In this document: positions 291 to 18,261 of the stretch, piece after piece
How positions within the stretch are numbered: position 1 is the first letter of the stretch
Layout: each line of letters opens with the position of its first letter
From: an uncultured archaeon
Lineage (GTDB): Archaea; Aenigmatarchaeota; Aenigmatarchaeia; CG10238-14
Reading direction: 5' to 3'
NCBI GenBank assembly: GCA_964601485.1
Contig: CAZRNP010000016.1
Location: 1 to 18,261 of the forward strand
Length of the DNA stretch: 18,261 bases
Program-made: the position numbers and the translations under genes
Notes under the pieces: generated by a model
Told to the model about the DNA's origin: nothing
The model's input: only the letters and a program-made list of their open reading frames with translations
Databases searched by the model: none

Positions 291-357
291 ATAAATGTAT
301 ATAAATTGAAAGATATATAAAAATTTCGATTGTATATTATAAAATTTAAGAGAATAG

Positions 358-448
358 TGGACCGGCTGAGATTCGAACTCAGGGCCTTTCGGTTATCAGC
401 TTCGTCGTATAGTACTCGAACGCTCCAGCCAGGCTGAGCTACCGGTCC
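358..448 (-). tRNA. tRNA-Ile (anticodon GAU) with a 16-nt intron
   Basis: Minus strand reads GGACCGG-TA-GCTC-AGCCTGGCTG-GAGC-G-TTCG[AGTACTATACGACGAA]G-CTGATAA-CCGAA-AGGCC-CTGAG-TTCGAAT-CTCAG-CCGGTCC-A. This is a complete cloverleaf once the bracketed insert (plus-strand 401-416) is removed. Anticodon GAT is the complement of 395-397. CCA is not encoded. Confidence 0.85.
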
Positions 449-507: not shown

Positions 508-579
508 GGGCCGATAGATCAACGGTAGATCGCTTGCTCCGCAAGTAAGAGGCTGAGGGTTCAAATCCCTCTCGGTCCA
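508..579 (+). tRNA. tRNA-Ala (anticodon CGC), atypical anticodon loop
   Basis: GGGCCGA-TA-GATC-AACGGTA-GATC-G-CTTGC-TCCGCAA-GTAAG-AGGCT-GAGGG-TTCAAAT-CCCTC-TCGGTCC-A. The acceptor stem carries G3:U70, the alanine identity pair. Anticodon CGC is at 540-542. Position 33 is C rather than the near-universal U. Confidence 0.75.
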
Positions 580-877: not shown

Positions 878-1600
878 TTAGAAGAGTTCAGGAATAAGTT
901 CATGCAGAGTTGTATGGGCATCTTTTATTATAGGACTGGTATCCTCTCGTGATCTGTACTTCTTTTCTAGAATGGAGAATAAAATCGAAAGATGTTTTAA
1001 AAATTCATCTAATTTAAATTGTTTTAATTTCATTGAGCCTGCCTCTGAATCGACAAGTCTAAATGGATAATCGTTAAGTCTAAACATCTGATTTTTCATG
1101 TTATTATCTAAATCTTTGATAGTAACTTTTCCTTCATCAACAATCCTCGCAAAAGCCTCTCCAACATTTTCTTGCAGAACGGCTTCGGCTAATGCAAAAT
1201 CGATTTTAGCTATGTCTATTGGACTTACTCCAGCTTGTTCGTAAAGATTTAAAATACGATTATAAGCTCTGTTGACTACATTTGGAAGGAATACGTAAAC
1301 TTCCTTTCCATCAGACCTTTTGTAATTTACTTTTAAAGACTCTTTCTCAAGGGATATTATTAACCCTTCTAAAAATGGGTCTTCACCAACTTCTTTCTTT
1401 ATACCATCCAACAAATCTCCTAGTTTTCCAAAACTTCCTTCGATTGGCACCCATGGGATATAGGCTAAAACAGTGTAATTGTTTGATGCATCTAGTTTTC
1501 TTATGTCATCTACAGAAGCACATTCAAAATTTCCACTACTCGTTCTAATTATATAGCTATGACATTGTTGAGAAGAGATATTTATCGACCTCAAATACAA
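878..1600 (-). CDS. hypothetical protein (240 aa), no recognisable motif
   Basis: Long open frame in an AT-rich background, which makes chance ORFs of this length unlikely. No catalytic or recombinase motif recognised. Lies inside the tRNA-Ala-bounded segment. Confidence 0.6.
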   Translation of the reverse strand: MYLRSINISSQQCHSYIIRTSSGNFECASVDDIRKLDASNNYTVLAYIPWVPIEGSFGKLGDLLDGIKKEVGEDPFLEGLIISLEKESLKVNYKRSDGKEVYVFLPNVVNRAYNRILNLYEQAGVSPIDIAKIDFALAEAVLQENVGEAFARIVDEGKVTIKDLDNNMKNQMFRLNDYPFRLVDSEAGSMKLKQFKLDEFLKHLSILFSILEKKYRSREDTSPIIKDAHTTLHELIPELF

Positions 1601-2453: not shown

Positions 2454-4838
2454 ATGAAGAAAAAAATTTCGTTGCTGATCTTCTCAATTCTAATTATTTT
2501 TCTTTTAATATCAACAGTAAAAGCAGATGGTGGATTCTTCCCTCCAGTTTATTACAAGGAAGACTTGTTTGAACCGACTCAAAAAGCCGTTATATTTCAT
2601 AACAACGGTGAAGAAAGAATAGTACTTCAAGTTGAATACAGCGGTTCAATGAAAGATTTTGCATGGGTAGTTCCTACCCCAAGTTATCCTGTTGTTAACA
2701 AGTCAGATCCACTTTTATTTGAAGAACTCCACTATTTAACTGAACCGATTTATAGAAGAGCTCCTGAGTGGCCATTGTTTTGGGGTTATTATGGTTCTGC
2801 CCTAATGGCAGTAGATAAAGGGGGTGTCCAACTTCTTGAAAGATATCAAGTTGGAATTTATGATGTGAGTATTCTATCTGCAACAGACCCTAATGCCTTA
2901 ATTAATTGGTTGAACAATAACAATTATTCAATCCCTCAAACTGCAAGAGGTGTAATTCAGCATTACATCGATAAAAATTGGTATTTTATTGCGATTAGAA
3001 TAAATTTAGCACCGTACAACGAAAATCTTATATCAACTCTCAGGAAAATCGACAGTAGGGTTACTACTCAAGAAAATGCAGTCCAATATTTGACAGACGA
3101 TTTAGTGAATTATGTAAAGGATGGAAAATTATACGATGAGTTAACTGCGATAAGAAATACTAATATAGAGTACGGTGAGGAAACAAAAACAAAGGTACAA
3201 GAGTTACCATACATGTATCGAATGCGTTATGAAAGTGCTCCTACTAGATTGATTGATGAGAGGGAATATACAGAATTATATGAAAATTATAACGGCTATT
3301 TAGATGATCACTTAAGGAATGATATACAGAAAAATATAGAAAATAAACTCACTCAAAAAATAGAGATTCCTTACTCGGATAGTTGTTATGAAGGTCGTCA
3401 CTGGCAAACAGGTGTTGATTATTCTTATTGTTATGTTTGGTATTTTACAAAAAATTCAGAAGAATATAAAACCTTGAAGAGTGTTGATTGCGGTCAGTAT
3501 TGTTCTAGAGTTTCTCAAACAAAAACCCAGTATTCAGCGGATGACTTAGCATACGTGGCGGCTAATGCTATAATGAATGGAGATGAATATATTAAAAACT
3601 ATTTTGAAATAACTCAGACGCAAATTGACTGGTATCAGAATTCTAAACAACGTTTCGATTATGTTTTCAATCAAGTTAAAAATAAGTTAATGGTAAAGTT
3701 AAATCAAGATGCGAATAATCTACGTTTACAGCTTGAACAACAATTAGCTCAAGAATATTCCCAAAAAACAGGAATGACTTTCAGTAATGTGAATGGAATT
3801 GCATATTTCTTTGCCGATAAGACATTACAAGATATTAAAACTGATAAAACATTCTTAAATTCATACATCTACAGTTTTGGTTTGATTGATTCTGGTGAAT
3901 ATACCAATTACAAAAGATTACACGATGGAAATCACGATGAAATAGGACTTAGGACTGCGATGGAGGAAATTGTAGATAAAGTAGTCTATTTTGAATACGA
4001 ACAAGTGAAAGGACAGTTAAACGCTGGAACAGTTCAACCATTGATGATAACATTCTATTCTGATGAAATAGTTTATCCTTTGAAAATGTCATCGATGAAC
4101 AAAGGCGCTGCTGAAATTTTGTTGTATGTTTTTACGAATTATAGAGTAGAAATAAATGGGTTCAATGTAGAATACGCTAAATGGATCAAACCCGAGGATA
4201 TAAGAACTGAAAGTTATCTCGAGTACAAAAGACAATATGGGGATAAACCAGTTTCTGAAGTCCCTCAATATTATCGAAAAGATGTTTATTATTACCTCAA
4301 CCAACTGTTGGATGACAGATACTTTTTGACCAAGATGAGAAGATCTATGTACCCAAGTGAAATGGAAGATTTGGTAATAACACAAGCTAGAAACAACGAA
4401 GAATACAGGTTGATTACATATGAACCGGGTTATGCAATGAAATGGATAGGGTTCATTATTGGAATCGGTATTTTAAGTTTGATCCTTACAGTTTTTTTCA
4501 TACCGATCGGATGGTTAAGCAATAGGTTGACAAATAGAAATGAAAAATCCATTTATTATGTTACTAAAAAAAGATGCTTTTATTATGCCTTAATATTCAT
4601 GCTTTTATTGGGCTTAACTATTATATTTTCTACTGTTGCAAATGTTTATTGGGATGTTTTAAAACCATTTAGCTGGTTTTTTGAATTCCTATCACATTTA
4701 TTGAATTTCATCGGACTTCCAGGACTTTTAATCGGAATAATTCTGTTCATACTTGCTTTATCCTTGATATTTGCTATTATACATGTAATTTTCAGTTTTA
4801 TCATATCGATATTTAAAACTTCAAAAAAACAATATTGA
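2454..4838 (+). CDS. DUF2330-like secreted protein with a large insert and a C-terminal multi-TM region (794 aa)
   Basis: Signal peptide MKKKISLLIFSILIIFLLISTVKA. It is followed by DGGFFPPVYYKEDLFEPTQKAVIFHNNGEERIVLQVEYSGSMKDFAWVVPTPSYP, which matches my memory of the DUF2330 N-terminal signature (GGFF ... FAWVxPxPs). The middle is about 450 aa, rich in Y/N/E/K with a 4-Cys cluster. Four or more TM helices occupy the last ~170 aa. Confidence 0.85.
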   Translation: MKKKISLLIFSILIIFLLISTVKADGGFFPPVYYKEDLFEPTQKAVIFHNNGEERIVLQVEYSGSMKDFAWVVPTPSYPVVNKSDPLLFEELHYLTEPIYRRAPEWPLFWGYYGSALMAVDKGGVQLLERYQVGIYDVSILSATDPNALINWLNNNNYSIPQTARGVIQHYIDKNWYFIAIRINLAPYNENLISTLRKIDSRVTTQENAVQYLTDDLVNYVKDGKLYDELTAIRNTNIEYGEETKTKVQELPYMYRMRYESAPTRLIDEREYTELYENYNGYLDDHLRNDIQKNIENKLTQKIEIPYSDSCYEGRHWQTGVDYSYCYVWYFTKNSEEYKTLKSVDCGQYCSRVSQTKTQYSADDLAYVAANAIMNGDEYIKNYFEITQTQIDWYQNSKQRFDYVFNQVKNKLMVKLNQDANNLRLQLEQQLAQEYSQKTGMTFSNVNGIAYFFADKTLQDIKTDKTFLNSYIYSFGLIDSGEYTNYKRLHDGNHDEIGLRTAMEEIVDKVVYFEYEQVKGQLNAGTVQPLMITFYSDEIVYPLKMSSMNKGAAEILLYVFTNYRVEINGFNVEYAKWIKPEDIRTESYLEYKRQYGDKPVSEVPQYYRKDVYYYLNQLLDDRYFLTKMRRSMYPSEMEDLVITQARNNEEYRLITYEPGYAMKWIGFIIGIGILSLILTVFFIPIGWLSNRLTNRNEKSIYYVTKKRCFYYALIFMLLLGLTIIFSTVANVYWDVLKPFSWFFEFLSHLLNFIGLPGLLIGIILFILALSLIFAIIHVIFSFIISIFKTSKKQY

Positions 4839-5918: not shown

Positions 5919-7709
5919 TCATACTTTCGACCCCGAGTAACTGGCTCTAAATTCGCTTAAAAAGGGAATTGCATCAACTTCCTTCGAAGGGATGTGAATT
6001 GCAGTTCCCTTCATATAAGCTATCGAGTGAGAAGTATAATTTATTTCAAGTCTTTTAAGCATGTGCATAAATTGTTCGGGAAAATTTGGCCAATAGTTGA
6101 TAGTCGCTTCTGTAACCCGACCCCTATCCCAGATCGCTTGTTCAACGTAACCTCTTAAAAGATTTTCCCCCATCTTCGCTAGTTTCCATGCATTTTCTTC
6201 GTCAACTCTTTCTATACTGTTAAAATCTAAAATGGGGGATAGCTGTGAAGGGAGGCATCGAGCAAATCTCGTGTACTGACCTTTAAATTTTTTCTGTCCA
6301 AATTTTTTTAAACCTTCACCAGATTCTTTTCTTTCAGTTTTTGCGGGTTCGAAATCACCAAAAACCTTAAACCTTTCGAAAGATCTTTCCCCTAATGTCC
6401 TTCTTTCTCCGTAAGAAAAGGTAAAATTTTCATTTGAATAAGTAGTCTTTCCTTCAAATACAGAGCCGAATAGCATCCCTTGCATCTCTTCAGTAATCGG
6501 AAATTTTGGGTTTTTTATGATTAACCCTGCTCCAATTTTGGACCAATATCTTGGGTTATCTAATCTAATTCCAAGTTTTTCTATGGTATCTAACAGAGTT
6601 TTATTTATTACGCTCTTTCCTGTATAATACGTACTGACTATATCAGCTGCAATTCTCCCTATTTTTGAATGAACAGCATCTATATTCAATAAATAGGGTT
6701 TACCTTCATCAACCCAATTTAAAGCCAAAGAATAAGACCAAGGCCACTTATAAGATGTACACAAAACCCATTTCATTTTTTCGTTAGGGCTTCCCATTGC
6801 TTGAATAACTTTAGCTCTTTGCAAAGTTCCAAGGACTTCTTGTTTCTCTCTTATCTTTTGCAATGTAGTTTCAACTTGAGAAGTAGGGAGGAATTCCCCA
6901 AGTTTTTCTCTAAGGCTTTCAACCTTACTATAACCTGCTACGACTCCGTCTATTAATTCTAATAAAGGTTTTGGGTCAGTGTGGGTTTGAATTAATTCAA
7001 TCAAATCTTTTCTGGCCTCTAAGAAAGTCTTTGTAGAACCCCCGAGTCTCCTATCTATTTTTCTGATTGTTTCTCTTGCTTCATCCTTCTTCCCTCCATA
7101 AAGACCCATAGCATCAACCAATGCCTCCTCGTTCAAACCATAAGCTATGTAGTTGCTTATAGGCCCATAAAGTCCCCAATAGATTTTTTCAAAATCTTCT
7201 TTGATGATTCCAAAAGCTTCATGTAACGGATATCCTTTCAAGACTCTTAAATCTGCGACTTTTTCAAGGTCAGGAACTCCTCTGAAGAGAGTTTTAAGTA
7301 TAGGATGAACGGCAATTCCAAATGTGTAAAAAACTGCCTCTCTCTCTATGTATTCATTAGGATTTATTCCTCTTTCTAAAAGACGGGGTTCAGCTCTTTT
7401 ACCAGCTTCTAATAATATCTTTCTTTGATGTTCTCTCCAGATTCGTTCTTGTTTAAGCTCAGAGTTAATACCCCTAACTTGTTCAACTTCGCCTTTAAGA
7501 TCGGCATCAAACAAACGTTCAGCATGAAGTTCAACATCATGAGCGGTGGGATGAACCCTAATTCCTTCTACCTTAATTTCTTGAGTTTCAGCTTTTTTTA
7601 CTAAATCTTTAACCGCTTCATCTAATTGTTGTTCGAGTCTTTCCTCTTCGTCTTTCCAATGCCAAGACAGAGTATGACCTTCTGGTAGATTTCTCCAATC
7701 GATCTGCAT
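5919..7709 (-). CDS. conserved-looking cytosolic protein of unknown function (596 aa)
   Basis: Uninterrupted 1.8-kb ORF with an ATG start, balanced composition and no TM or signal peptide. I found no P-loop, HExxH, KxDG, class I/II aaRS or other diagnostic motif. Confidence 0.8.
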   Translation of the reverse strand: MQIDWRNLPEGHTLSWHWKDEEERLEQQLDEAVKDLVKKAETQEIKVEGIRVHPTAHDVELHAERLFDADLKGEVEQVRGINSELKQERIWREHQRKILLEAGKRAEPRLLERGINPNEYIEREAVFYTFGIAVHPILKTLFRGVPDLEKVADLRVLKGYPLHEAFGIIKEDFEKIYWGLYGPISNYIAYGLNEEALVDAMGLYGGKKDEARETIRKIDRRLGGSTKTFLEARKDLIELIQTHTDPKPLLELIDGVVAGYSKVESLREKLGEFLPTSQVETTLQKIREKQEVLGTLQRAKVIQAMGSPNEKMKWVLCTSYKWPWSYSLALNWVDEGKPYLLNIDAVHSKIGRIAADIVSTYYTGKSVINKTLLDTIEKLGIRLDNPRYWSKIGAGLIIKNPKFPITEEMQGMLFGSVFEGKTTYSNENFTFSYGERRTLGERSFERFKVFGDFEPAKTERKESGEGLKKFGQKKFKGQYTRFARCLPSQLSPILDFNSIERVDEENAWKLAKMGENLLRGYVEQAIWDRGRVTEATINYWPNFPEQFMHMLKRLEINYTSHSIAYMKGTAIHIPSKEVDAIPFLSEFRASYSGSKV

Positions 7710-10347: not shown

Positions 10348-11055
10348 ATGTATAGTCAAAGGAATAATGTTAATGACTGGGGATTGAAAAGAGAAAATAG
10401 TATTGATAATTATGCAAGAATTGTAAAGGCATCTATTGGCGGGATAAAAAAAACTAGATTAATGTCTGAAGCAGGTTTGAGTTTCACACAACTCAATGGA
10501 GTGAATAGACCGGATAAAAATACAGAGGGATATTTGAAAGAAGTTCTTTTATATCGATTAATAGAACCAAATAATGGAGATTATTGGACGACTGAGGAAG
10601 GTAAGGGATTTTTAAAACATTATCATAAGATGAGAAGTTATTTAAAACCAGGATATTCACCTAAATTCATTCCATCATCAAAACTACAAAGTACAAAACC
10701 CATTGTCGTTAAACAAAAAAAGAATGGAAAAAATCGTACTTTTTACGATATTATAGCTAGATGTGTAGAGGTATCAATTAACGGAATGAAAAAAACTAAA
10801 CTAATGTATGATGCGGGTTTGAACAATGAGAAATTAAAAGAATATAGGAATATACTCACAAGACTTGGATTAATGTTAGAAGAAGATAACAAGCTTTGGG
10901 CAACTGAAAAAGGTATTGAATTCTTAGAGGCTTATAAAATTACAAAGAATTATCTAAGAGACCCATCTGAGGTTTCAGTATCTATGCCAGTGCCACAAAC
11001 CATTATGCCAAATGGTAATGGTGGTTTTGTAAAAAATTTTCGTCAATTTAGTTAA
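10348..11055 (+). CDS. tandem winged-helix (HTH_45/DUF4364-like) DNA-binding protein
   Basis: Two internal repeats: NYARIVKASIGGIKKTRLMSEAGLSFTQL...YWTTEEGKGFLKHY and FYDIIARCVEVSINGMKKTKLMYDAGLNNEKLKEYRNILTRLGLMLEEDNKLWATEKGIEFLEAY. Each fits the archaeal wHTH pattern (G..KT.lMy.agL....l..Y...L...gLi......y.lTekG..fL..Y). A BRE/TATA-like GAAAGGTTTATATT lies ~35 nt upstream of the ATG. Confidence 0.8.
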   Translation: MYSQRNNVNDWGLKRENSIDNYARIVKASIGGIKKTRLMSEAGLSFTQLNGVNRPDKNTEGYLKEVLLYRLIEPNNGDYWTTEEGKGFLKHYHKMRSYLKPGYSPKFIPSSKLQSTKPIVVKQKKNGKNRTFYDIIARCVEVSINGMKKTKLMYDAGLNNEKLKEYRNILTRLGLMLEEDNKLWATEKGIEFLEAYKITKNYLRDPSEVSVSMPVPQTIMPNGNGGFVKNFRQFS

Positions 11056-11120
11056 AATCCTAAAACTTTTAAAAACTTAAATAAACGAATTATTAGTAAA
11101 AAGGAAAGAAATTATACACA

Positions 11121-11139
11121 GGTGGATACGATTTAACAC
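11121..11139 (+). repeat. 19-bp perfect direct repeat GGTGGATACGATTTAACAC (left copy)
   Basis: Identical to 12543-12561. Both copies are preceded by AAATTAT(A/T)-ACA. A second partial copy, TTTAACACAGAAT at 11159-11171, matches 12554-12566 at 12 of 13 positions. Confidence 0.9.
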
Positions 11140-11314
11140 ATATCATGATCAGGAAATCTTTAACACAGAATGCTTCTGAAAATTATAAATTCCCTAAGTT
11201 CTTATGGCCGAGGGAGATAATATCGTTCATGGACCCAATGAAATTAGAATCTCAAAGTTGATACAGTTACCAAAAAATCTATCTGATTCAGAAAAATAAA
11301 AAGAAAAGAAAGGT

Positions 11315-12288: not shown

Positions 12289-12319
12289 AACTATCCTTTC
12301 TCTTATCGAGAATAAAAAT

Positions 12320-12391
12320 TTATTTGATTCTCCCTCTTGTATGTTTGCTACGATTAGGTTTACAACCACGACACCTTTTTTTATTTACCAT
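12320..12391 (-). CDS. possible 23-aa basic CxxC peptide
   Basis: A textbook SD AAGGTGA sits 7 nt upstream of ATG 12391. Translation is MVNKKRCRGCKPNRSKHTRGRIK. It overlaps the 5' part of the 92-aa track ORF in another frame. Confidence 0.3.
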   Translation of the reverse strand: MVNKKRCRGCKPNRSKHTRGRIK

Positions 12392-12542
12392 TTTTTTTCA
12401 CCTTATTTTAATTCTTTAATCTTTTGTTGAATTATATTCCTAAAGAACAAAAATTTATCTTTTTCCCAAATTATTCAATGGGATAAAGGATTTGAAAATA
12501 AAACAGTTAAAGATAAAAATGCCCTTATAAATTATTAACAGA

Positions 12543-12561
12543 GGTGGATACGATTTAACAC
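12543..12561 (+). repeat. 19-bp perfect direct repeat GGTGGATACGATTTAACAC (right copy, inside the aRF1 leader / open frame)
   Basis: Identical to 11121-11139. It lies within the stretch 12539-12589 that is open in the aRF1 frame. Confidence 0.9.
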
Positions 12562-13830: not shown

Positions 13831-14616
13831 TTGAAAGTAAGAGAAGTTCTTGTTTACAGGCCTGGTGAAGAGATCAACATAGTAGAAAAACCTTTTAGAT
13901 GGGGTTTCTCTCAGACACCATACATGATACCGATGCAGAGAGAACACGATGAAATCATGAAAGTCCTACAGAACGAAGGAGTCAAAGTAAATTATCTGAG
14001 AAAAATGATCGGTTTTAAACCAAAGATGTACGTCTTAAGAGATGATGCTGTTGTTGTGGACAGAAAAGCGGTTGCATGCCATCTTTCTCAGGGGATAAGG
14101 AGGGGTGAAGAACAGATAGTCAAGTTAACGTTGAAAGAACTTGGGATAAAAATAGCTGGACACATCTTTGTTCCTGGTGTTTTAGAGGGGAGTGATTTGT
14201 TCTTCACGAGTAAAAATCATGCCTTCGCCATCGTGGGACCAAGGACCAACATGGAAGGCGTAAACCATCTTAAGGAAATTTTCAAGATAGATGTAACATC
14301 GATCCAAATGGACAATCTTTCCAGCACGCAATTCAACATCATAAACGATATCGCTGTCATAGATGAAGAATTGTCTTATGGTCCCTTGTTTACCGCCTTG
14401 AAAGAAAAGGAATATGACCTAGTCATCGCATCAAAAAAACAAGTCAATGAGATGGCCTTGAACTTCTTGCAGATAGACGATAATAAGATTGTCAACGTAA
14501 AATCAGAAATCAACAAAAAACTAAAGATGATGGGCCTTGACGTGATAGAGGTAGAGATAAGAGACTTGATGAAAGGAAACACTGGTGTTAGGAATATCTG
14601 TTTACCCTTCTACTGA
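13831..14616 (+). CDS. pentein-fold enzyme (amidinotransferase / dimethylarginine dimethylaminohydrolase / arginine deiminase-like)
   Basis: The ~260-aa length is typical of DDAH-like proteins. The N-terminus VLVYRP...EH..i...L...GV.V..L, the central DLFF, and the C-terminal G.TGVRNICLPF carrying the expected catalytic Cys near the C-terminus all fit. The TTG start at 13831 is preceded by AGTGAT. The call comes from pattern memory only. Confidence 0.65.
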   Translation: MKVREVLVYRPGEEINIVEKPFRWGFSQTPYMIPMQREHDEIMKVLQNEGVKVNYLRKMIGFKPKMYVLRDDAVVVDRKAVACHLSQGIRRGEEQIVKLTLKELGIKIAGHIFVPGVLEGSDLFFTSKNHAFAIVGPRTNMEGVNHLKEIFKIDVTSIQMDNLSSTQFNIINDIAVIDEELSYGPLFTALKEKEYDLVIASKKQVNEMALNFLQIDDNKIVNVKSEINKKLKMMGLDVIEVEIRDLMKGNTGVRNICLPFY

Positions 14617-15099
14617 TTTTGAATACGTTACGTTTAGTTTAGAGGTTCGGACTATAATTTTTGTGAAATCTTTGTTCCAGTCGGTTTGAATCGCTGTGGT
14701 TTGCCCTGATTTTAAAGGATCTCTTGGTTTGTTGATTATGTTTACCTTATTCTCATCCACATAAACAGTGAAGTTAGAGATTTGTATTTTACCAGGGTTA
14801 GAAACAGTTATCAAAAGGTTGTTGTTAGAATCCCTAGAAACTTCTGATACCTCTATGTTTTGGAATATTCTCTTGATGTAATTAACAATGTCGAAAGAAG
14901 ATGGATTTTGTGGGAATAAAGGACCGATTATCGGTATTGACCTAAGGCTCGGTATCGAACCTAAGATGAGGTGACCGGCTATAAGCGCAAAAAATATTAA
15001 GATTAAACCTATAGCTAAGCTCTTGACTATTTTGATCATCGTGTAAACTATTACTGCTAAAATCAAAATGCCTATAATTATTGAAATGACCATGTTCAA
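14602..15099 (-). CDS. hypothetical membrane protein (two N-terminal TM helices plus a beta-rich extracellular domain)
   Basis: Track ORF. Its TTG start is at 15099 and an alternative ATG lies at 15093. TM helices are ISIIIGILILAVIVYTMI and LAIGLILIFFALIAGHLILG. The 3' end overlaps the convergent pentein gene by 15 nt. Confidence 0.6.
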   Translation of the reverse strand: MNMVISIIIGILILAVIVYTMIKIVKSLAIGLILIFFALIAGHLILGSIPSLRSIPIIGPLFPQNPSSFDIVNYIKRIFQNIEVSEVSRDSNNNLLITVSNPGKIQISNFTVYVDENKVNIINKPRDPLKSGQTTAIQTDWNKDFTKIIVRTSKLNVTYSKSVEG

Positions 15100-15190
15100 T
15101 ATATTTGTAGCAGAATTTAAGTATATTTCTCAGTGGTGTTTTCATTTTTTAATATTTTTAAAACCATACAAAATTATTTAAATTTAAACA

Positions 15191-15207
15191 TGGATAATTT
15201 ATCCAGG
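15191..15207. promoter_or_regulatory. 17-bp site TGGATAATTTATCCAGG (15-bp perfect palindrome TGGATAA-T-TTATCCA): putative operator, copy 1
   Basis: Ends 4 nt before ATG 15212 and lies 15 nt downstream of the TATA-like ATTTAAA (15176-15182). An identical 17-mer is at 17511-17527. Confidence 0.7.
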
Positions 15208-15211
15208 TTAC

Positions 15212-16903
15212 ATGAAAAGGATAATTTTGATTTTAATTTATTTTCAGATTATGATACTTCTGATATTACCACAATTTGTAGTTGCTAATTCGAACCTCAC
15301 TATAGCAATAGATTGGCTTAAAAAAAATCAGAGAGAAGATGGTTCCTATGGTTCTTGGACTGAACATTGGACTTCACCAGCAATGATAGCGCTCTATAAG
15401 AGCGAAGGTAATTCGTCTAATGTAACAACAGGTTTAAACTGGTTGAAGACCCAACTAGAAGATTCCTCTTCATGGTTCTGGGAAACATGGGGCGAAGCAG
15501 ATGTTCCTAGTATATCACTCTATGCTTTCACTCAAACAGACCATTTATCTGACATCGATCTATCCAATATCTCATCGAACATTCTCTCTTTTCAACAGAT
15601 GAGTGGCGGTTTCAAGGGATATTATGATCCAAATCTAGGCAGCCAAGTGGAAAGTAGTGTTGATACTACAATAGCAGTGTTGGGTTTAATAAATGCTAAT
15701 GCAATACCAGAAGAGAATAAGAATAAAGCAGTGAATTACTTGTTAAACCTGCAGAACTCAGACGGAAGTTTTAATCTAACACCCACCATACAATCTGATC
15801 CTTTATACTCTCACGCTCCTGAACCGATCAGTCTAACCGCGATGGTATTACTTACGCTGAAAGATTGTGGACTAGACACATCAAACACTTCTGTTCTGAA
15901 CGGAATGAACTATTTGAAAAATTCTGCTACCAATTGTTTTGATAATCACAGTTATGCTACTGCCTTATCATCAATAGTATTCGATCGATTCAACGAATTA
16001 AGTTATGAATTAATCGCGATAAATTGTTTAAAAAGTCTACAAAATCCAGATGGAGGGTTTTCAGATAGAATACGTACCACAAATGTTTCAAACGCTCTTG
16101 ATACTGGTTGGGCTGCTATCGCTCTACAAAAAGTTACACCGTTGATCAAAGTAGGAGTTTTAATCAGTTTTCCGAATGGAACAACATTTGCTCATTGCTT
16201 ACAATTACCGAATGGTTCAACCGCAGAAGATGCGTTAAAAGCCAGTGGTATGAAAACATTATGGGCATCTTTCAGTTTTGGTGATGCATTAACGAAGATT
16301 GAAGATGTAGGCTGTCCAACCTCAGATCCTTGGTGTCAATGTTCTAATATGAATGTTTGCTGTTTGCTCTGGAATTTTTGGATACTCAATTCAACCAATC
16401 AATGGAAATTCTCTCAAGTGGGATTTGGAGACTATAAGCTGAAAGATAAAGATGTATTTGGCAATATATGGGCGAGTGATGCAGGCAAAACACCTCCTTT
16501 ATTTTTATTCGATGAGATATGTCCTGATGGATTCACAATCAACAACAATTCCTTTGTTGGTGTTTACACTTGTGATTCAACTACGACAACCACGATTACG
16601 ACAACTTCTGTTGAAGTAACAACAACAGTCGTTGAGCATGGGGGTGGTGGTATGATCACAACTACGACAACGCAAACTACTGTTCCGATGACTACGACTA
16701 GTATTCAAACGACTACATCAACTACATTTTCACCTGCTCCAACTACAACAAGCACTGTCATTACAAACGTCACGAACAATCAGTTAAAGCCTAGTCCGTT
16801 AACAGGGTTTGTTGGTTTTATAATTTCTCCAGTTGGTATCGGTATAATTGTTGCAATAGTTGTCCTAGCATTTTTTGTTTATTTAATGTTGCCAGAGAGA
16901 TAG
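15212..16903 (+). CDS. surface-anchored protein: prenyltransferase/terpene-cyclase-like alpha/alpha toroid + DUF4430 (transcobalamin-beta-like) domain + Thr-rich stalk + C-terminal TM anchor
   Basis: Signal peptide MKRIILILIYFQIMILLILPQFVVA. There are six repeats of the type WL...Q..DGSyG / SGGFKGYY / LQNSDGSFN / LQNPDGGFSD (aa ~30-308). Aa ~312-421 read GVLISFPNGTT...GSTAEDALKASG...W.FWILN...QWKFSQVGFGDYKLKDKDVFGNIW, which fits the DUF4430 pattern. A poly-Thr stalk spans aa ~456-517. The C-terminus is PLTGFVGFIISPVGIGIIVAIVVLAFFVYLMLPER. Many N-x-S/T sequons are present. Confidence 0.85.
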   Translation: MKRIILILIYFQIMILLILPQFVVANSNLTIAIDWLKKNQREDGSYGSWTEHWTSPAMIALYKSEGNSSNVTTGLNWLKTQLEDSSSWFWETWGEADVPSISLYAFTQTDHLSDIDLSNISSNILSFQQMSGGFKGYYDPNLGSQVESSVDTTIAVLGLINANAIPEENKNKAVNYLLNLQNSDGSFNLTPTIQSDPLYSHAPEPISLTAMVLLTLKDCGLDTSNTSVLNGMNYLKNSATNCFDNHSYATALSSIVFDRFNELSYELIAINCLKSLQNPDGGFSDRIRTTNVSNALDTGWAAIALQKVTPLIKVGVLISFPNGTTFAHCLQLPNGSTAEDALKASGMKTLWASFSFGDALTKIEDVGCPTSDPWCQCSNMNVCCLLWNFWILNSTNQWKFSQVGFGDYKLKDKDVFGNIWASDAGKTPPLFLFDEICPDGFTINNNSFVGVYTCDSTTTTTITTTSVEVTTTVVEHGGGGMITTTTTQTTVPMTTTSIQTTTSTTFSPAPTTTSTVITNVTNNQLKPSPLTGFVGFIISPVGIGIIVAIVVLAFFVYLMLPER

Positions 16904-17470
16904 TGCTACTTTTATTGAAGCTTCTTCTGATATTTTTTTCGTAGAACCTGAGCCTATTATTATGACATCTCCGTTCTCAACCTTGAAATGGTTACGGAGG
17001 ATTTTTTCCAATCCTGTAATTTTTCTGTTGCATCCTGGGAATATTAGTCTGTTATTATTACAAACCAAAGTTGTTGCGCCATCAGCTCCTATTTTTATAG
17101 CCTCGTCCCTCTGCTCGATGCCGAATTTAACTTTTTTTGATGAGCCTTTAACAAGAATTGCAGTGTTGTACTTTCCGATTGTGCATTCACTCGTGTCTAT
17201 TTCTATAGGTTTTGAGATTTTCATCAGGATTTTTTTCAACAGTTCATTCCCTTTTTCAGTCAGTACATGCCCTTTAGTAGAAGGCTTAATTAATTTATTC
17301 ATTTTCAGACGCTTTACAAGAGTTTTAATCGTAGCTTCCCCCATTTCCATTTCTTTCATCAGTTGAAACCTTCCCATGGGTTTTTCGGAGAGTAAAAAAA
17401 GGGTCTTAACTATATGGACAGGGGAATAAGATGCCCTGACATCGATCAAATCTTTAAACATGTTATCCAT
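16883..17470 (-). CDS. winged-helix transcriptional regulator with an uncharacterised C-terminal domain (possibly the archaeal DUF4443 family)
   Basis: The N-terminus IVKTLFLLSEKPMGRFQLMKEMEMGEATIKTLVKRLKMNKLIKPSTKGHVLTEKGNELL is a MarR/PadR-like wHTH. The C-terminal ~110 aa (GADGATTLV...IIIGSGS) look like a small-ligand-binding or dimerisation domain. The gene is divergent from the S-component-like gene, and its 3' end overlaps the 563-aa gene by 21 nt. Confidence 0.75.
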   Translation of the reverse strand: MDNMFKDLIDVRASYSPVHIVKTLFLLSEKPMGRFQLMKEMEMGEATIKTLVKRLKMNKLIKPSTKGHVLTEKGNELLKKILMKISKPIEIDTSECTIGKYNTAILVKGSSKKVKFGIEQRDEAIKIGADGATTLVCNNNRLIFPGCNRKITGLEKILRNHFKVENGDVIIIGSGSTKKISEEASIKVALSLWQH

Positions 17471-17510
17471 ATGTATATTTTATAATCAAAAGATTTAAAA
17501 AATTAAAAAT

Positions 17511-17527
17511 TGGATAATTTATCCAGG
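17511..17527. promoter_or_regulatory. 17-bp site TGGATAATTTATCCAGG: putative operator, copy 2
   Basis: Identical to 15191-15207. It ends 8 nt before ATG 17536 (3 nt before an out-of-frame ATG at 17531) and lies 18 nt downstream of the TATA-like ATTTAAA (17493-17499). It sits in the divergent intergenic region shared with the regulator gene, whose start is at 17470. Confidence 0.7.
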
Positions 17528-17535
17528 ATCATGCC

Positions 17536-18261
17536 ATGGAACAAGAATTAAAACAAAAAAGTCAACAGGGAACTTTACTTTTGTCTGCTCAAAGGACGAA
17601 ATATTCCTTGAAGAGAAAATTGTTATTAATGATGGGTTTAACTTCCTTAGGAATCTTAGGAAGGGCTGCATTCCAATTCATACCGAGCGTTGAACCCTTG
17701 ACGCCCTTGGCTATATTGACTGGGTTTTTACTTGGCCCGATTTCTGGTTTTATTTCTGGTGTTGTTGGTTTTTATCTATCCAATTTTCTCGTTTGGGGTT
17801 TTCAAGGGCCTTGGACTGTTTTCCAATGTTTGGGTGCAGGTCTGGCAGGTTTCATCGGTGGGTTGATAGGAAAGTTAGGGAAGAAATCGAGGACAAAATT
17901 TTTAATATCCACTTTAATAGGGATAATCGTTTATGAGATAATTGTGACTGTTTCCATGGGAATGATGTTCTCTTTACCATTGTTAGTGTTCTATACAATA
18001 ACTAGTATTCCATTCTCTATAGTTCATTTGTCGAGTAGCTTAGGTTTTTCCCTATCATTTTACGAGTTCAAAGAACAGATAAAAAAATTGAAGGGTGGTT
18101 TAGTTGAAAAAGAGATACTTGGCTTCAGGGTTGCTCATAGTAGTACTGGCAAGCCTGGTAATAAACTTGTACCTTACCTTTACTCCAGAAAAATCCACAG
18201 AAAAGATAAGGGTAGTAGCAAGGATAGATTTTGGTGCTTCAGAAAAGACAAAGACAGTTGA
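17536..18261 (+). CDS. polytopic membrane protein resembling an ECF-transporter substrate-specific (S) component, with a basic C-terminal tail
   Basis: Five to six TM helices. The stretch IPSVEPLTPLAILTGFLLGPISGFISGVVGFYLSNFLVWGFQGPWTVFQCLGAGLAGFIGGLIG fits the general S-component pattern (P.v.P.t...ilaG.llGp..Gf..G....l.sn.l.g.G.W..fQ....l.G...G). The TGA stop is at the last base of the window. Family assignment comes from pattern memory only. Confidence 0.6.
   Translation: MEQELKQKSQQGTLLLSAQRTKYSLKRKLLLMMGLTSLGILGRAAFQFIPSVEPLTPLAILTGFLLGPISGFISGVVGFYLSNFLVWGFQGPWTVFQCLGAGLAGFIGGLIGKLGKKSRTKFLISTLIGIIVYEIIVTVSMGMMFSLPLLVFYTITSIPFSIVHLSSSLGFSLSFYEFKEQIKKLKGGLVEKEILGFRVAHSSTGKPGNKLVPYLYSRKIHRKDKGSSKDRFWCFRKDKDS

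Follow-up and report, generated by a model that had tools for sequence, protein, structure and literature searches.

Archaea largely lack B12 riboswitches, and how they sense vitamin B12 is an open question. A CBL-box or 'CblR' regulon, the predicted signal of a hypothetical archaeal B12 regulator, was reportedly described by Rodionov et al. in 2003 (J Biol Chem; RegPrecise), who are said neither to have named the regulator nor to have covered DPANN archaea and Thaumarchaeota. This regulon resembles the system described here in having a palindromic DNA signal upstream of cobalt/B12 transport genes in archaea without B12 riboswitches. The boxes that we report precede cbiM, cbtB, NicO, CbrT-like S-component and DUF4430 genes as well as nrdD, and the gene classes match those of the CBL-box (cbiM, cbtB, NiCoT, corrinoid uptake and nrdD); motif identity was not compared, and the CBL-box consensus was not found in the searchable literature. 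A 2023 study of Pyrococcus furiosus gave the transcription factor of the predicted cobalamin regulon as 'CblrR (unknown)' (PMC10746257). The bacterial cobalamin riboswitch regulon, considered together with ECF-CbrT (6FNP), likewise controls the same gene classes, and the S-component of the present locus resembles CbrT; however, control there is exerted by RNA and here by a protein and a DNA site, and the DNA analysed here holds no EcfA/A'/T. The linked gene classes are reportedly (Rodionov et al. 2003) those under B12 riboswitches in bacteria.

Rodionova et al. 2017 reportedly described ThiR and RbkR, archaeal wHTH regulators that respond to vitamins and take the place of TPP and FMN riboswitches. 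They share with the present system an N-terminal wHTH joined to a small-molecule domain, palindromic operators at promoters for vitamin uptake or biosynthesis and a regulator gene that often lies beside its targets, and the RbkR-DNA structure 5trd was among the structure matches of our regulator model. Their sensors are ThiN-like or riboflavin kinase domains, whereas the sensor here would be the GAD-like fold of DUF4443, and the DNA motif and the vitamin differ. In archaea, MDR1, Phr, LrpA and, at some promoters, TrmB repress by binding downstream of the TATA box, where they prevent RNA polymerase from being recruited. A dyad operator between TATA and transcription start site (TSS) and a dimeric wHTH link them to the arrangement proposed here, but the protein family is another one and the mechanism here is inferred from position only. 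The N-terminal DNA-binding domain of CggR/SorC (PF21715; PDB 7oyk, 8r3g) is a wHTH similar in sequence and structure; however, the C-terminal domain of CggR is large and binds sugar phosphates, its DNA targets are direct repeats, and the effector domain here is unrelated.

The full-length homologue of our regulator is PH0730 from Pyrococcus horikoshii (PDB 2p8t), the structural prototype of the Pfam families PF22167 and PF14544, and its recognition helix matches. PH0730 comes from structural genomics and has been given neither a function nor a DNA site or ligand; the searchable literature mentions it only in a census of transcription factors. In Thermococcales its gene sits beside pyrF and, unlike the regulator gene described here, is unlinked to the presumed targets. 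We know of no characterised member of the DUF4443 family, and a literature search returned nothing on DUF4443.

The locus was analysed within a single stretch of DNA of 18,261 nucleotides from a DPANN archaeon (Aenigmarchaeota), referred to below as the window. Its relevant features are the following:

10348-11055: second wHTH gene, HTH_45 (Pfam)
14602-15099, minus strand: divergent membrane-protein gene (from the sequence; weak CARDB match only)
15176-15188, plus strand: TATA-like element ATTTAAATTTAAA of the surface-protein promoter (from the sequence)
15191-15207, plus strand: putative operator copy 1, TGGATAA-T-TTATCCA then GG, before the surface-protein gene (exact match)
15212-16903, plus strand: target gene 1, a 563-aa alpha/alpha-toroid surface protein (Pfam, AF2, Foldseek)
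16883-17470, minus strand: regulator of 195 aa, PH0730-like wHTH plus DUF4443 (Pfam PF22167 and PF14544)
17493-17501, no strand assigned: A/T-rich TATA stretch ATTTAAAAA in the 65-nt divergent intergenic region (from the sequence)
17511-17527, plus strand: putative operator copy 2, TGGATAA-T-TTATCCA then GG, before the ECF S-component gene (exact match)
17536-18261, plus strand: target gene 2, a 241-aa ECF S-component (Pfam PF12822 ECF_trnsprt, E 7e-9; stop codon at the end of the window)

The 17-mer TGGATAATTTATCCAGG occurs exactly twice in the window, a count reached by none of 200 dinucleotide-preserving shuffles, and the only other matches with up to three mismatches are the same two palindromes on the opposite strand. 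Its 15-bp core is a dyad-symmetric 7-1-7 palindrome with two perfect 7-bp arms, and the size of the dyad fits a wHTH dimer; sequence searches thus bear out both the two exact copies and the perfect arms claimed in the preliminary description. No further copy of the core with up to two mismatches was present in the window. Counting the TATA-like stretch, the two copies of the repeat are 89% identical over 28 nt (15180-15207 versus 17500-17527).

Both copies lie between a TATA box and a start codon. ATTTAAA is found at 15176-15182 and 17493-17499 and begins 15 and 18 nt, respectively, before the palindrome begins, and the 17-mers end 4 and 8 nt before the ATG codons at 15212 and 17536, in agreement with the spacings given earlier. 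The placement holds as first proposed and fits a block of RNA polymerase recruitment, in the absence of transcript data. At all DPANN sites, TTTAAA starts 14-18 nt upstream of the box (14-17 nt at the orthologous promoters) and an ATG follows 6-12 nt downstream, again without a mapped TSS. Taking ~26 nt to the TATA centre, we infer that transcription of the surface-protein gene starts at ~15207-15213 and yields a near-leaderless mRNA. The ATTTAAAAA stretch is unchanged across an 8-locus alignment and, judging by spacing only, probably serves both the S-component promoter on the plus strand and a leaderless regulator promoter on the minus strand. Autoregulation, which had been considered possible, is not evident from the geometry in this clade, where the box lies upstream of the regulator's own TATA, although Thaumarchaeota-like loci do show it. 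The membrane-protein gene at 14602-15099, noted earlier because copy 1 lies in the divergent region that it shares, probably stands outside the regulon: the box is ~95 nt upstream of its start, past that gene's own TATA-like element, and the gene is not a conserved partner, being absent from that position in one orthologous locus (L088).

The regulator is well defined as a protein. Its N-terminal wHTH matches PF22167 PH0730-like_N (E 2.4e-14; 53.6 bits against a cut-off of 30.2), its residues 98-192 match DUF4443 (E 5.4e-30; profile positions 1-99 of 100), and a profile match to 2p8t covers residues 3-188 (E 3e-32). The AF2 model (pLDDT 91.3) has the same fold as 2p8t (Foldseek E 1.8e-14, TM 0.80/0.84, rmsd 2.4 A), and structure comparison showed that the DUF4443 fold resembles the insertion (GAD-like) domain of AspRS rather than a known B12-binding fold. 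The family comprises ~900 clusters at 50% identity, distributed over DPANN, Thaumarchaeota, Bathyarchaeia, Asgard and Thermococcales. A recognition helix of the form (L/I)xE(A/G)x(I/V)(K/R)TL(L/V)(K/R)(K/R)(L/M) is kept from DPANN to Thermococcales, with T50 and K53 invariant. The family also has a conserved acidic GxEQRD motif and an invariant D168, and no invariant His or Cys. The regulator had been assumed to be the only one nearby, but the HTH_45 gene lies ~4 kb away.

Conservation of the site in orthologous loci, proposed earlier as a check, is borne out, as every orthologous locus fetched carries TGGATAA-N-TTATCCA at the two corresponding promoters. Six lineages (L001, L002, L081, L085/86, L087 and L088), with regulators 81-96% identical, have the exact 15-mer at both promoters; in L090 (69%) one box is exact and the copy at the surface-protein promoter has 1 mismatch. 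All 14 arm positions of copy 2 are invariant in 8 orthologous promoters, the central base alone varying (T/G), and the GG after the box is conserved in DPANN sites. In ~162 kb of DPANN sequence, 19 boxes with at most one mismatch were detected, all at these promoters and nowhere else, and the box is therefore not a common repeat; a generic repeat or MITE was rejected on the lack of extra copies in the window or in ~162 kb of related DNA. Among close relatives, however, the entire 65-nt intergenic region between the regulator and S-component genes is 86% conserved. Because of this, the close-clade alignment cannot single out the box, and since its footprint is not discriminating, the argument rests on distant loci.

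The box still accompanies the regulator gene in lineages that have lost both the synteny and the flanking sequence. Regulators 56% identical (L091/L092) have one box ~425 nt from the regulator gene. A pattern-only scan of GTDB genomes gave at least 120 loci, most of them chance bacterial matches, and three sites in coding regions (L095, L137 and L208) were set aside; among the matches listed, the regulator gene adjoins the box in L114, L127 and L211, with regulators 39-44% identical. A distant set of 76 DUF4443 loci (35-48% identical) contained 28 box matches with up to two mismatches against a shuffle mean of 3.05. In 24 of these 76 loci the pattern GGAT-N5-ATCC lay between -300 and +60 relative to the regulator start, compared with 0.013 expected per stretch (~25x background), and the other 52 had no box near the regulator gene. 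About one third of the distant DUF4443 genes are accordingly flanked by a related box, TGGAT-RR-N-TTATCCA, the family-wide core being TGGAT-N5-ATCCA. The distant boxes are intergenic and TATA-proximal, often with TATA boxes on both flanks, and separate the regulator gene from a divergent gene of the cbtB, NicO-type, ECF S-component or DUF4430 kind. Matches of box-linked genes include CbtB (5e-12), NicO (2e-15) and CbiM (3e-49), and also ECF S-components, DUF4430 and DUF6580. Furthermore, an exact box lies upstream of cbiMNQ in a Bathyarchaeote (L197; among the matches listed) and upstream of nrdD in at least three Thermococcus species with diverged flanks. The Thermococcales regulator gene, which adjoins pyrF, has no box nearby, and its link to the Thermococcus nrdD boxes is indirect. 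An autoregulatory box was sought at the Thermococcales orthologues (PF1113 and the T. kodakarensis gene), and none with up to two mismatches was found.

The two genes downstream of the boxes in the window are candidates for corrinoid uptake. The surface protein is secreted and membrane-anchored; besides the toroid it has a beta domain, a stalk rich in Thr and a TM helix at its C-terminus. It matches SQHop_cyclase_C, Prenyltrans and TED in Pfam (alpha6/alpha6 toroid domain), and its AF2 model (pLDDT 84) is helical over residues 1-285 and contains the beta domain. Over ~450 columns, Foldseek aligned it with transcobalamin, haptocorrin and intrinsic factor (E 1e-7 to 1e-5; TM 0.36-0.39). DUF4430 is the C-terminal domain of transcobalamins (PMC4350170). 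The window protein itself has no Pfam match to DUF4430, and BLASTP to a DUF4430 domain gave only E 3.1; its homologue P0294 carries DUF4430, and DUF4430 proteins hold the position of the surface protein in L090, L127 and L054. On these models and matches, the surface protein is a candidate transcobalamin-like corrinoid binder, its cobalamin binding being inferred. The sole PDB sequence match of the S-component, whose orthologues are likewise 238-241 aa, is 6fnp_A (E 1.5e-6; residues 20-176 against 4-162). The structure 6FNP is that of ECF-CbrT, a B12 transporter (PMC5997447), and its chain A (182 aa) is inferred from its length to be CbrT. The S-component is CbrT-like and may be corrinoid-specific, a specificity that cannot be read securely from a match of 1.5e-6. 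EcfA, EcfA' and EcfT were absent among the window ORFs and the nine window proteins scanned with Pfam, and no energising module lies next to the S-component in relatives; its genes could lie at another locus, which is the case in group II ECF systems.

Taken together, the palindromes are very probably the DNA site of the regulator encoded between them. The earlier suggestion of a DNA operator for the neighbouring wHTH gains support from a box that does not vary at either promoter and that accompanies the DUF4443 gene into unrelated gene neighbourhoods and further archaeal phyla, and the link between box and regulator is strong, although there are no binding data. What was observed is the site and how it is conserved, the association of the site with this regulator family in genomes, and the kinds of genes linked to it. 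Beyond these observations, we consider it somewhat probable that a dimeric DUF4443 repressor uses the box as its operator and so keeps RNA polymerase from being recruited, with B12 or another corrinoid as the probable co-repressor; binding, repression and effector are inferred, as is the direction of regulation. A regulator dimer would set one recognition helix on each TGGAT(A/G)(A/G) half-site of a box that, by TATA spacing alone, would occupy roughly -16 to -1, downstream of the TATA box and just ahead of the transcription start of a near-leaderless gene. With the regulator in place, TBP and TFB could still bind, but RNA polymerase would not be recruited. The two repressed genes would form a corrinoid-scavenging system, one encoding a surface binder like transcobalamin and the other an ECF S-component like CbrT. 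The likeliest signal is vitamin B12 or a related corrinoid, which would act as co-repressor through the DUF4443 domain, so that corrinoid uptake would be shut off once the cofactor is sufficient, and a protein system would do the job of bacterial B12 riboswitches. The corrinoid effector is inferred from the target genes only. Counting against the proposal are the DUF4443 fold, which is not a known B12-binding one, the lack of an invariant His or Cys, the 52 distant loci without a box near the regulator gene and the absence of an energising module from the window. Cobalamin derivatives, listed in the preliminary description as candidate ligands, remain the best-supported effector class, the family-wide targets being cobalt/corrinoid transporters and nrdD.

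The effector is where a different reading is easiest to sustain. The same regulator and operator could serve a DUF4443 domain that senses Co2+ (or Ni2+) or another vitamin carried by the ECF S-component, which we regard as unlikely though still a possibility to be reckoned with. Many of the distant linked genes are metal transporters (CbtB, NicO and CbiM), the acidic GxEQRD motif and D168 could ligate metal, and the insecure specificity of the S-component leaves room for another vitamin. However, a cobalt sensor would leave unexplained the DUF4430/transcobalamin-like binders and the CbrT-like component in DPANN, as well as nrdD in Thermococcus, and the lack of an invariant His or Cys also speaks against a metal site. 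Bacterial cobalt transporters of these families are, as far as is known, controlled by B12 and not by cobalt, which we count against a cobalt sensor too. It is considerably more doubtful that another transcription factor binds the box and that the DUF4443 gene is a mere neighbour. Regulators of other families do adjoin two boxes, a wHTH plus DUF7839 protein at L197 (cbiM) and an ArsR-type protein at L162 (Thermococcus), and the Thermococcales DUF4443 gene is not near any box. Yet DUF4443 genes and the box are found together in at least three archaeal lineages whose flanking sequences are unrelated, and DUF7839 is unrelated outside the wHTH; as a DUF4443 homologue it was rejected (hhalign probability 7%, wHTH only). 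The HTH_45 protein (10348-11055) was likewise discarded as the binder, having no detectable homologue in the distant box-bearing loci and hence no co-occurrence with the box there.

We give very little credence to the idea that the palindrome acts as a hairpin in the 5'-UTR, affecting translation or stability, or as an initiator or promoter-proximal element of strong promoters. The original argument that a 1-nt spacer excludes RNA does not strictly hold, for the RNA could fold into a hairpin: in the ViennaRNA prediction, copy 1 has a stem of 6 bp and a loop of 3 nt. The RNA reading nevertheless fails on other grounds, since fold energies are no better than those of shuffles (z -1.2 and -0.3), the minimum free energy structure of copy 2 does not use the palindrome, and distant boxes alter one arm (TGGATGG) while the other, TTATCCA, stays uncompensated. 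By TATA-based spacing, moreover, most of the box would lie upstream of the transcript. An Rfam scan of the window at the gathering threshold returned two tRNAs only, with no cobalamin riboswitch (RF00174 and relatives), and an RNA structure was accordingly rejected. That the box abuts the predicted TSS and is followed by a conserved GG in DPANN sites would suit a promoter element, but the other promoters of the window lack the box, and boxes serve divergent genes in both orientations, which tells against an RNA as well.

With a corrinoid-responsive repressor as the preferred reading, the proposal can be extended from this locus to the family. We see about an even chance that DUF4443/PH0730 proteins are the missing archaeal B12-responsive transcription factor 'CblR', recognising a deeply conserved TGGAT-N5-ATCCA box and repressing cobalt/corrinoid uptake and the B12-independent ribonucleotide reductase; the regulator described here may thus be the long-sought archaeal vitamin B12 sensor. 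The locus offers a specific protein family with a crystal structure, a defined 15-bp site and coherent targets across several phyla. If the proposal is true, DUF4443 would have an assigned function, and archaea would have a protein counterpart to the cobalamin riboswitch of bacteria. In DPANN symbionts the regulator would gate transcobalamin-like surface scavenging, and our results suggest that these host-dependent archaea regulate the scavenging of corrinoids by a transcobalamin-like surface protein.

The 17-mer TGGATAATTTATCCAGG was recovered as exact copies at 15191-15207 and 17511-17527, a count reached in none of the shuffles (0/200). Its core is the 15-bp palindrome TGGATAA-T-TTATCCA, of which no additional copy was found in the window at up to two mismatches, and each 17-mer forms the end of one copy of a 28-nt repeat (family D9, 89% identity) that includes a TATA-like stretch. 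ATTTAAA starts 15 and 18 nt upstream of the respective palindromes, and 4 and 8 nt separate the 17-mers from the start codons at 15212 and 17536; the preliminary description of a two-copy palindrome with this spacing was accurate. The window is archaeal and AT-rich (G+C 30-40%), and the nearest named homologues of its regulator are from Candidatus Aenigmarchaeota, a DPANN lineage. The features concerned, together with two tRNA genes, are as follows.

15212-16903, plus strand: surface protein, 563 aa, a secreted alpha/alpha-toroid that bears a Thr-rich stalk and is anchored at its C terminus
16883-17470, minus strand: regulator, 195 aa, PH0730-like wHTH (PF22167) and DUF4443 (PF14544)
17536-18261, plus strand: ECF S-component, 241 aa, complete
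357-448, minus strand: tRNA-Ser(ACT), 92 nt, divergent from tRNA-Ala(CGC)
508-579, plus strand: tRNA-Ala(CGC), divergent from tRNA-Ser(ACT)

The window additionally codes for aRF1 and a valyl-tRNA-synthetase-like protein, and no Pfam family was matched at E up to 0.01 by the ORFs at 5919-7709 (minus strand, 596 aa) and 878-1600 (minus strand, 240 aa). Two other repeats were observed. A 24-nt element, ACA(C/G)AGGTGGATACGATTTAACAC, occurs at 11116-11139 and 12538-12561 (family D11, 96% identical), each copy directly after a TATA-like stretch, with one before aRF1 (start 12590) and the other before a 41-codon ORF (start 11146), and could represent a 5' leader common to both or a regulatory element. 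A second intergenic motif, ACAAAAAnnTATCTGATTC, has six matches at up to three mismatches (0.32 expected; reached in 0/200 shuffles) and, lying at irregular distances from the genes downstream, does not resemble a simple promoter.

712-730, 1837-1855, 2158-2176, 11271-11289, 12312-12330 and 12447-12465, plus strand: ACAAAAAnnTATCTGATTC motif

Contigs fetched for the collected regulator homologues provided orthologous loci, in which the gene order S-component (leftward), regulator (rightward), surface protein (leftward) was seen repeatedly. The site is conserved: the exact core TGGATAA-N-TTATCCA lies upstream of both targets in six lineages (L001, L002, L081, L085/86, L087 and L088), one box copy of L090 (regulator 69% identical) carries a single mismatch, and variation in orthologous boxes is confined to the central base. 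In L087 (545-1545), which has the same regulator protein as L085/L086, the S-component gene was not called at its usual place; the box and the initial codons of the S-component are retained there, and behind them come a 135-aa DUF4430 gene and a 116-aa gene. This may be variation between strains, or else an effect of assembly or of a frameshift. Since the entire 65-nt divergent intergenic region is conserved in the close clade (86% overall), its alignment cannot single out the box, and the decisive evidence is that from more distant lineages. Where the regulator is 56% identical and the synteny differs (L091/L092), one box is retained within unrelated flanks. A pattern-only scan of GTDB genomes gave, among the matches listed, mostly chance bacterial ones; the three DPANN matches among them (L114, L127 and L211) each have a DUF4443 gene adjoining the box, encoding proteins 39-44% identical to the window regulator. 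That the box is merely a common genomic repeat is ruled out, because all 19 sites with at most one mismatch in ~162 kb of DPANN DNA (19/19) sit at these promoters.

The association extends to 76 distant DUF4443 loci from a metagenome scan (35-48% identical; named homologues in this range come from Nitrososphaeraceae and Bathyarchaeia). These contain 28 occurrences of the core at up to two mismatches, against a shuffle mean of 3.05 and maximum of 6, and in 24/76 loci GGAT-N5-ATCC falls inside the interval from -300 to +60 around the start of the regulator gene (expectation for one stretch this long, 0.013). The distant boxes, with the variant TGGAT(A/G)G-(T/A)-TTATCCA, are intergenic and follow a TATA box by a few bases. 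Many are flanked by TATA boxes on both sides, and one box then serves both the regulator's own promoter and the divergent gene. The predicted recognition helix is kept from DPANN to Thermococcales, and T50 and K53 are invariant. Taken together, these comparisons argue strongly for the box as the operator of the DUF4443 regulator, a link that is very probable, with binding itself inferred. The proposal that the neighbouring wHTH protein reads the palindrome as a DNA site is thereby supported by family-wide co-occurrence, in the absence of binding data.

Overlapping double boxes at L027 5595-5613, L050 967-985 and L052 2672-2690 form a longer palindrome, (T/A)GGATGGATTATCCATCC(A/T), and a single box of the same kind, TGGATTATCCATCCA, was observed at L055 5869-5883. 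All four stand in front of ECF S-component-like genes, and a GGAT unit in repeat may constitute the half-site.

Genes divergent from or downstream of distant boxes include CbtB (Pfam 5e-12; at least 13 loci), ECF S-component-like proteins (8 loci), a NicO/NiCoT transporter (2e-15), DUF6580 membrane proteins and DUF4430 proteins. In the Bathyarchaeota locus L197, an exact box (3986-4000) lies 17 nt upstream of cbiM-cbiN-cbiQ (CbiM 3e-49). Thermococci account for 4 of the 120 GTDB-scan matches listed, and in three species of Thermococcus (L117 7048-7062, L165 1902-1916 and L201 7402-7416), whose flanking sequences have diverged, the exact box is directly upstream of nrdD, the anaerobic ribonucleotide reductase (NRDD 7.6e-146), immediately before its Shine-Dalgarno sequence and start. 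Cobalt and corrinoid transporters and B12-independent ribonucleotide reductases are, reportedly from work of Rodionov et al. in 2003, classic members of the bacterial B12-riboswitch regulon.

Within the window, the sole PDB sequence match of the S-component is 6fnp_A (E 1.5e-6), from the B12 transporter ECF-CbrT (PMC5997447). The modelled fold of the surface protein (pLDDT 84) matches transcobalamin, haptocorrin and intrinsic factor over ~450 columns, and its predicted structure also gives toroid-only matches to terpene cyclases. In a homologue from Micrarchaeota the toroid is joined to DUF4430, and DUF4430 proteins occupy the position equivalent to the surface protein in L090 and L127; transcobalamins carry this domain at their C terminus (PMC4350170).

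A family of small membrane proteins (48-118 aa; motif ..DIL.G..(I)YF....L.KGI.S..; no Pfam match) was also observed, whose genes immediately follow the box in a number of distant DPANN loci and come after the S-component and DUF4430 genes in close relatives. The family probably represents a part of the uptake system that has gone unrecognised, and its window counterpart would fall just past the window end.

L114 6909-7055; L211 2579-2869; L091 10580-10888; L005 1456-1596: small membrane protein genes
L086 8571-8921; L088 7493-7843; L090 8560-8916: small membrane protein genes

A different transcription factor could bind the box, as two boxes adjoin regulators of other families: the L197 box is divergent from a wHTH and DUF7839 regulator related to DUF4443 proteins only in its wHTH, and the fourth Thermococci match (L162) precedes a CitMHS-type transporter gene, divergent from an ArsR-type regulator. 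This is unlikely given the co-occurrence of the box with DUF4443 genes, and at L197 the box is either bound in trans by a DUF4443 protein or recognised by another family. An RNA hairpin had been dismissed on the ground of the 1-nt spacer; that argument does not strictly hold, as a hairpin is physically possible, but the RNA reading remains unsupported, Rfam giving no riboswitch in the window, and the arm change in distant boxes, uncompensated in the opposite arm, speaks against it. It is also possible that the same DUF4443 regulator responds to cobalt or another effector, a poor fit to the targets in DPANN and to nrdD. A corrinoid co-repressor would fit all targets, because uptake and the B12-independent enzyme would both be shut off when B12 is available, and we infer, with only slight preference, that a corrinoid is the effector of the DUF4443 regulator.

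The window regulator is a full-length homologue of PH0730 (PDB 2p8t; E 3e-32), on which its AF2 model (pLDDT 91) superposes at a TM of 0.80. Its wHTH resembles the CggR DNA-binding domain, and the DUF4443 domain resembles the bacterial AspRS insertion domain, not any known B12-binding fold. The invariant residues include G117, Q120, R121, G128, G131, T133, T134 and D168, and no His or Cys is invariant in the family. The family comprises ~929 clusters at 50% identity (E up to 1e-10) and is universal in Thermococcales (e.g., PF1113 and the T. kodakarensis orthologue), where the gene adjoins pyrF, in T. kodakarensis on its upstream side, with no box nearby. In the searchable literature, no mention of DUF4443 was found, and PH0730 is named solely in a census of TFs.

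Taking the 8-nt TATA as -30 to -23, in the absence of TSS data, transcripts would start at ~15207 for the surface protein and ~17524-17530 for the S-component, leaving leaders of only a few bases, and the boxes would span roughly -16 to -1 or +2. Several archaeal repressors block RNA polymerase recruitment with TBP and TFB still bound, and a dimer at the box may act likewise; repression by such a steric block is likely on positional grounds. Autoregulation, raised in the preliminary description, is uncertain in the close clade because, for the regulator's own gene, the box precedes the shared TATA stretch (~-41 to -55), and is better founded in Thaumarchaeota-like loci, where the box comes after the TATA box and ahead of the regulator gene.

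A 'CBL-box' is said to have been proposed by Rodionov et al. in 2003 for a hypothetical archaeal B12 regulator. If the palindrome is this box, whose consensus was not compared, the site is already known and only the transcription factor assignment would be new. The interpretation reaches beyond the window to a regulon of the whole family, probably linked to B12.
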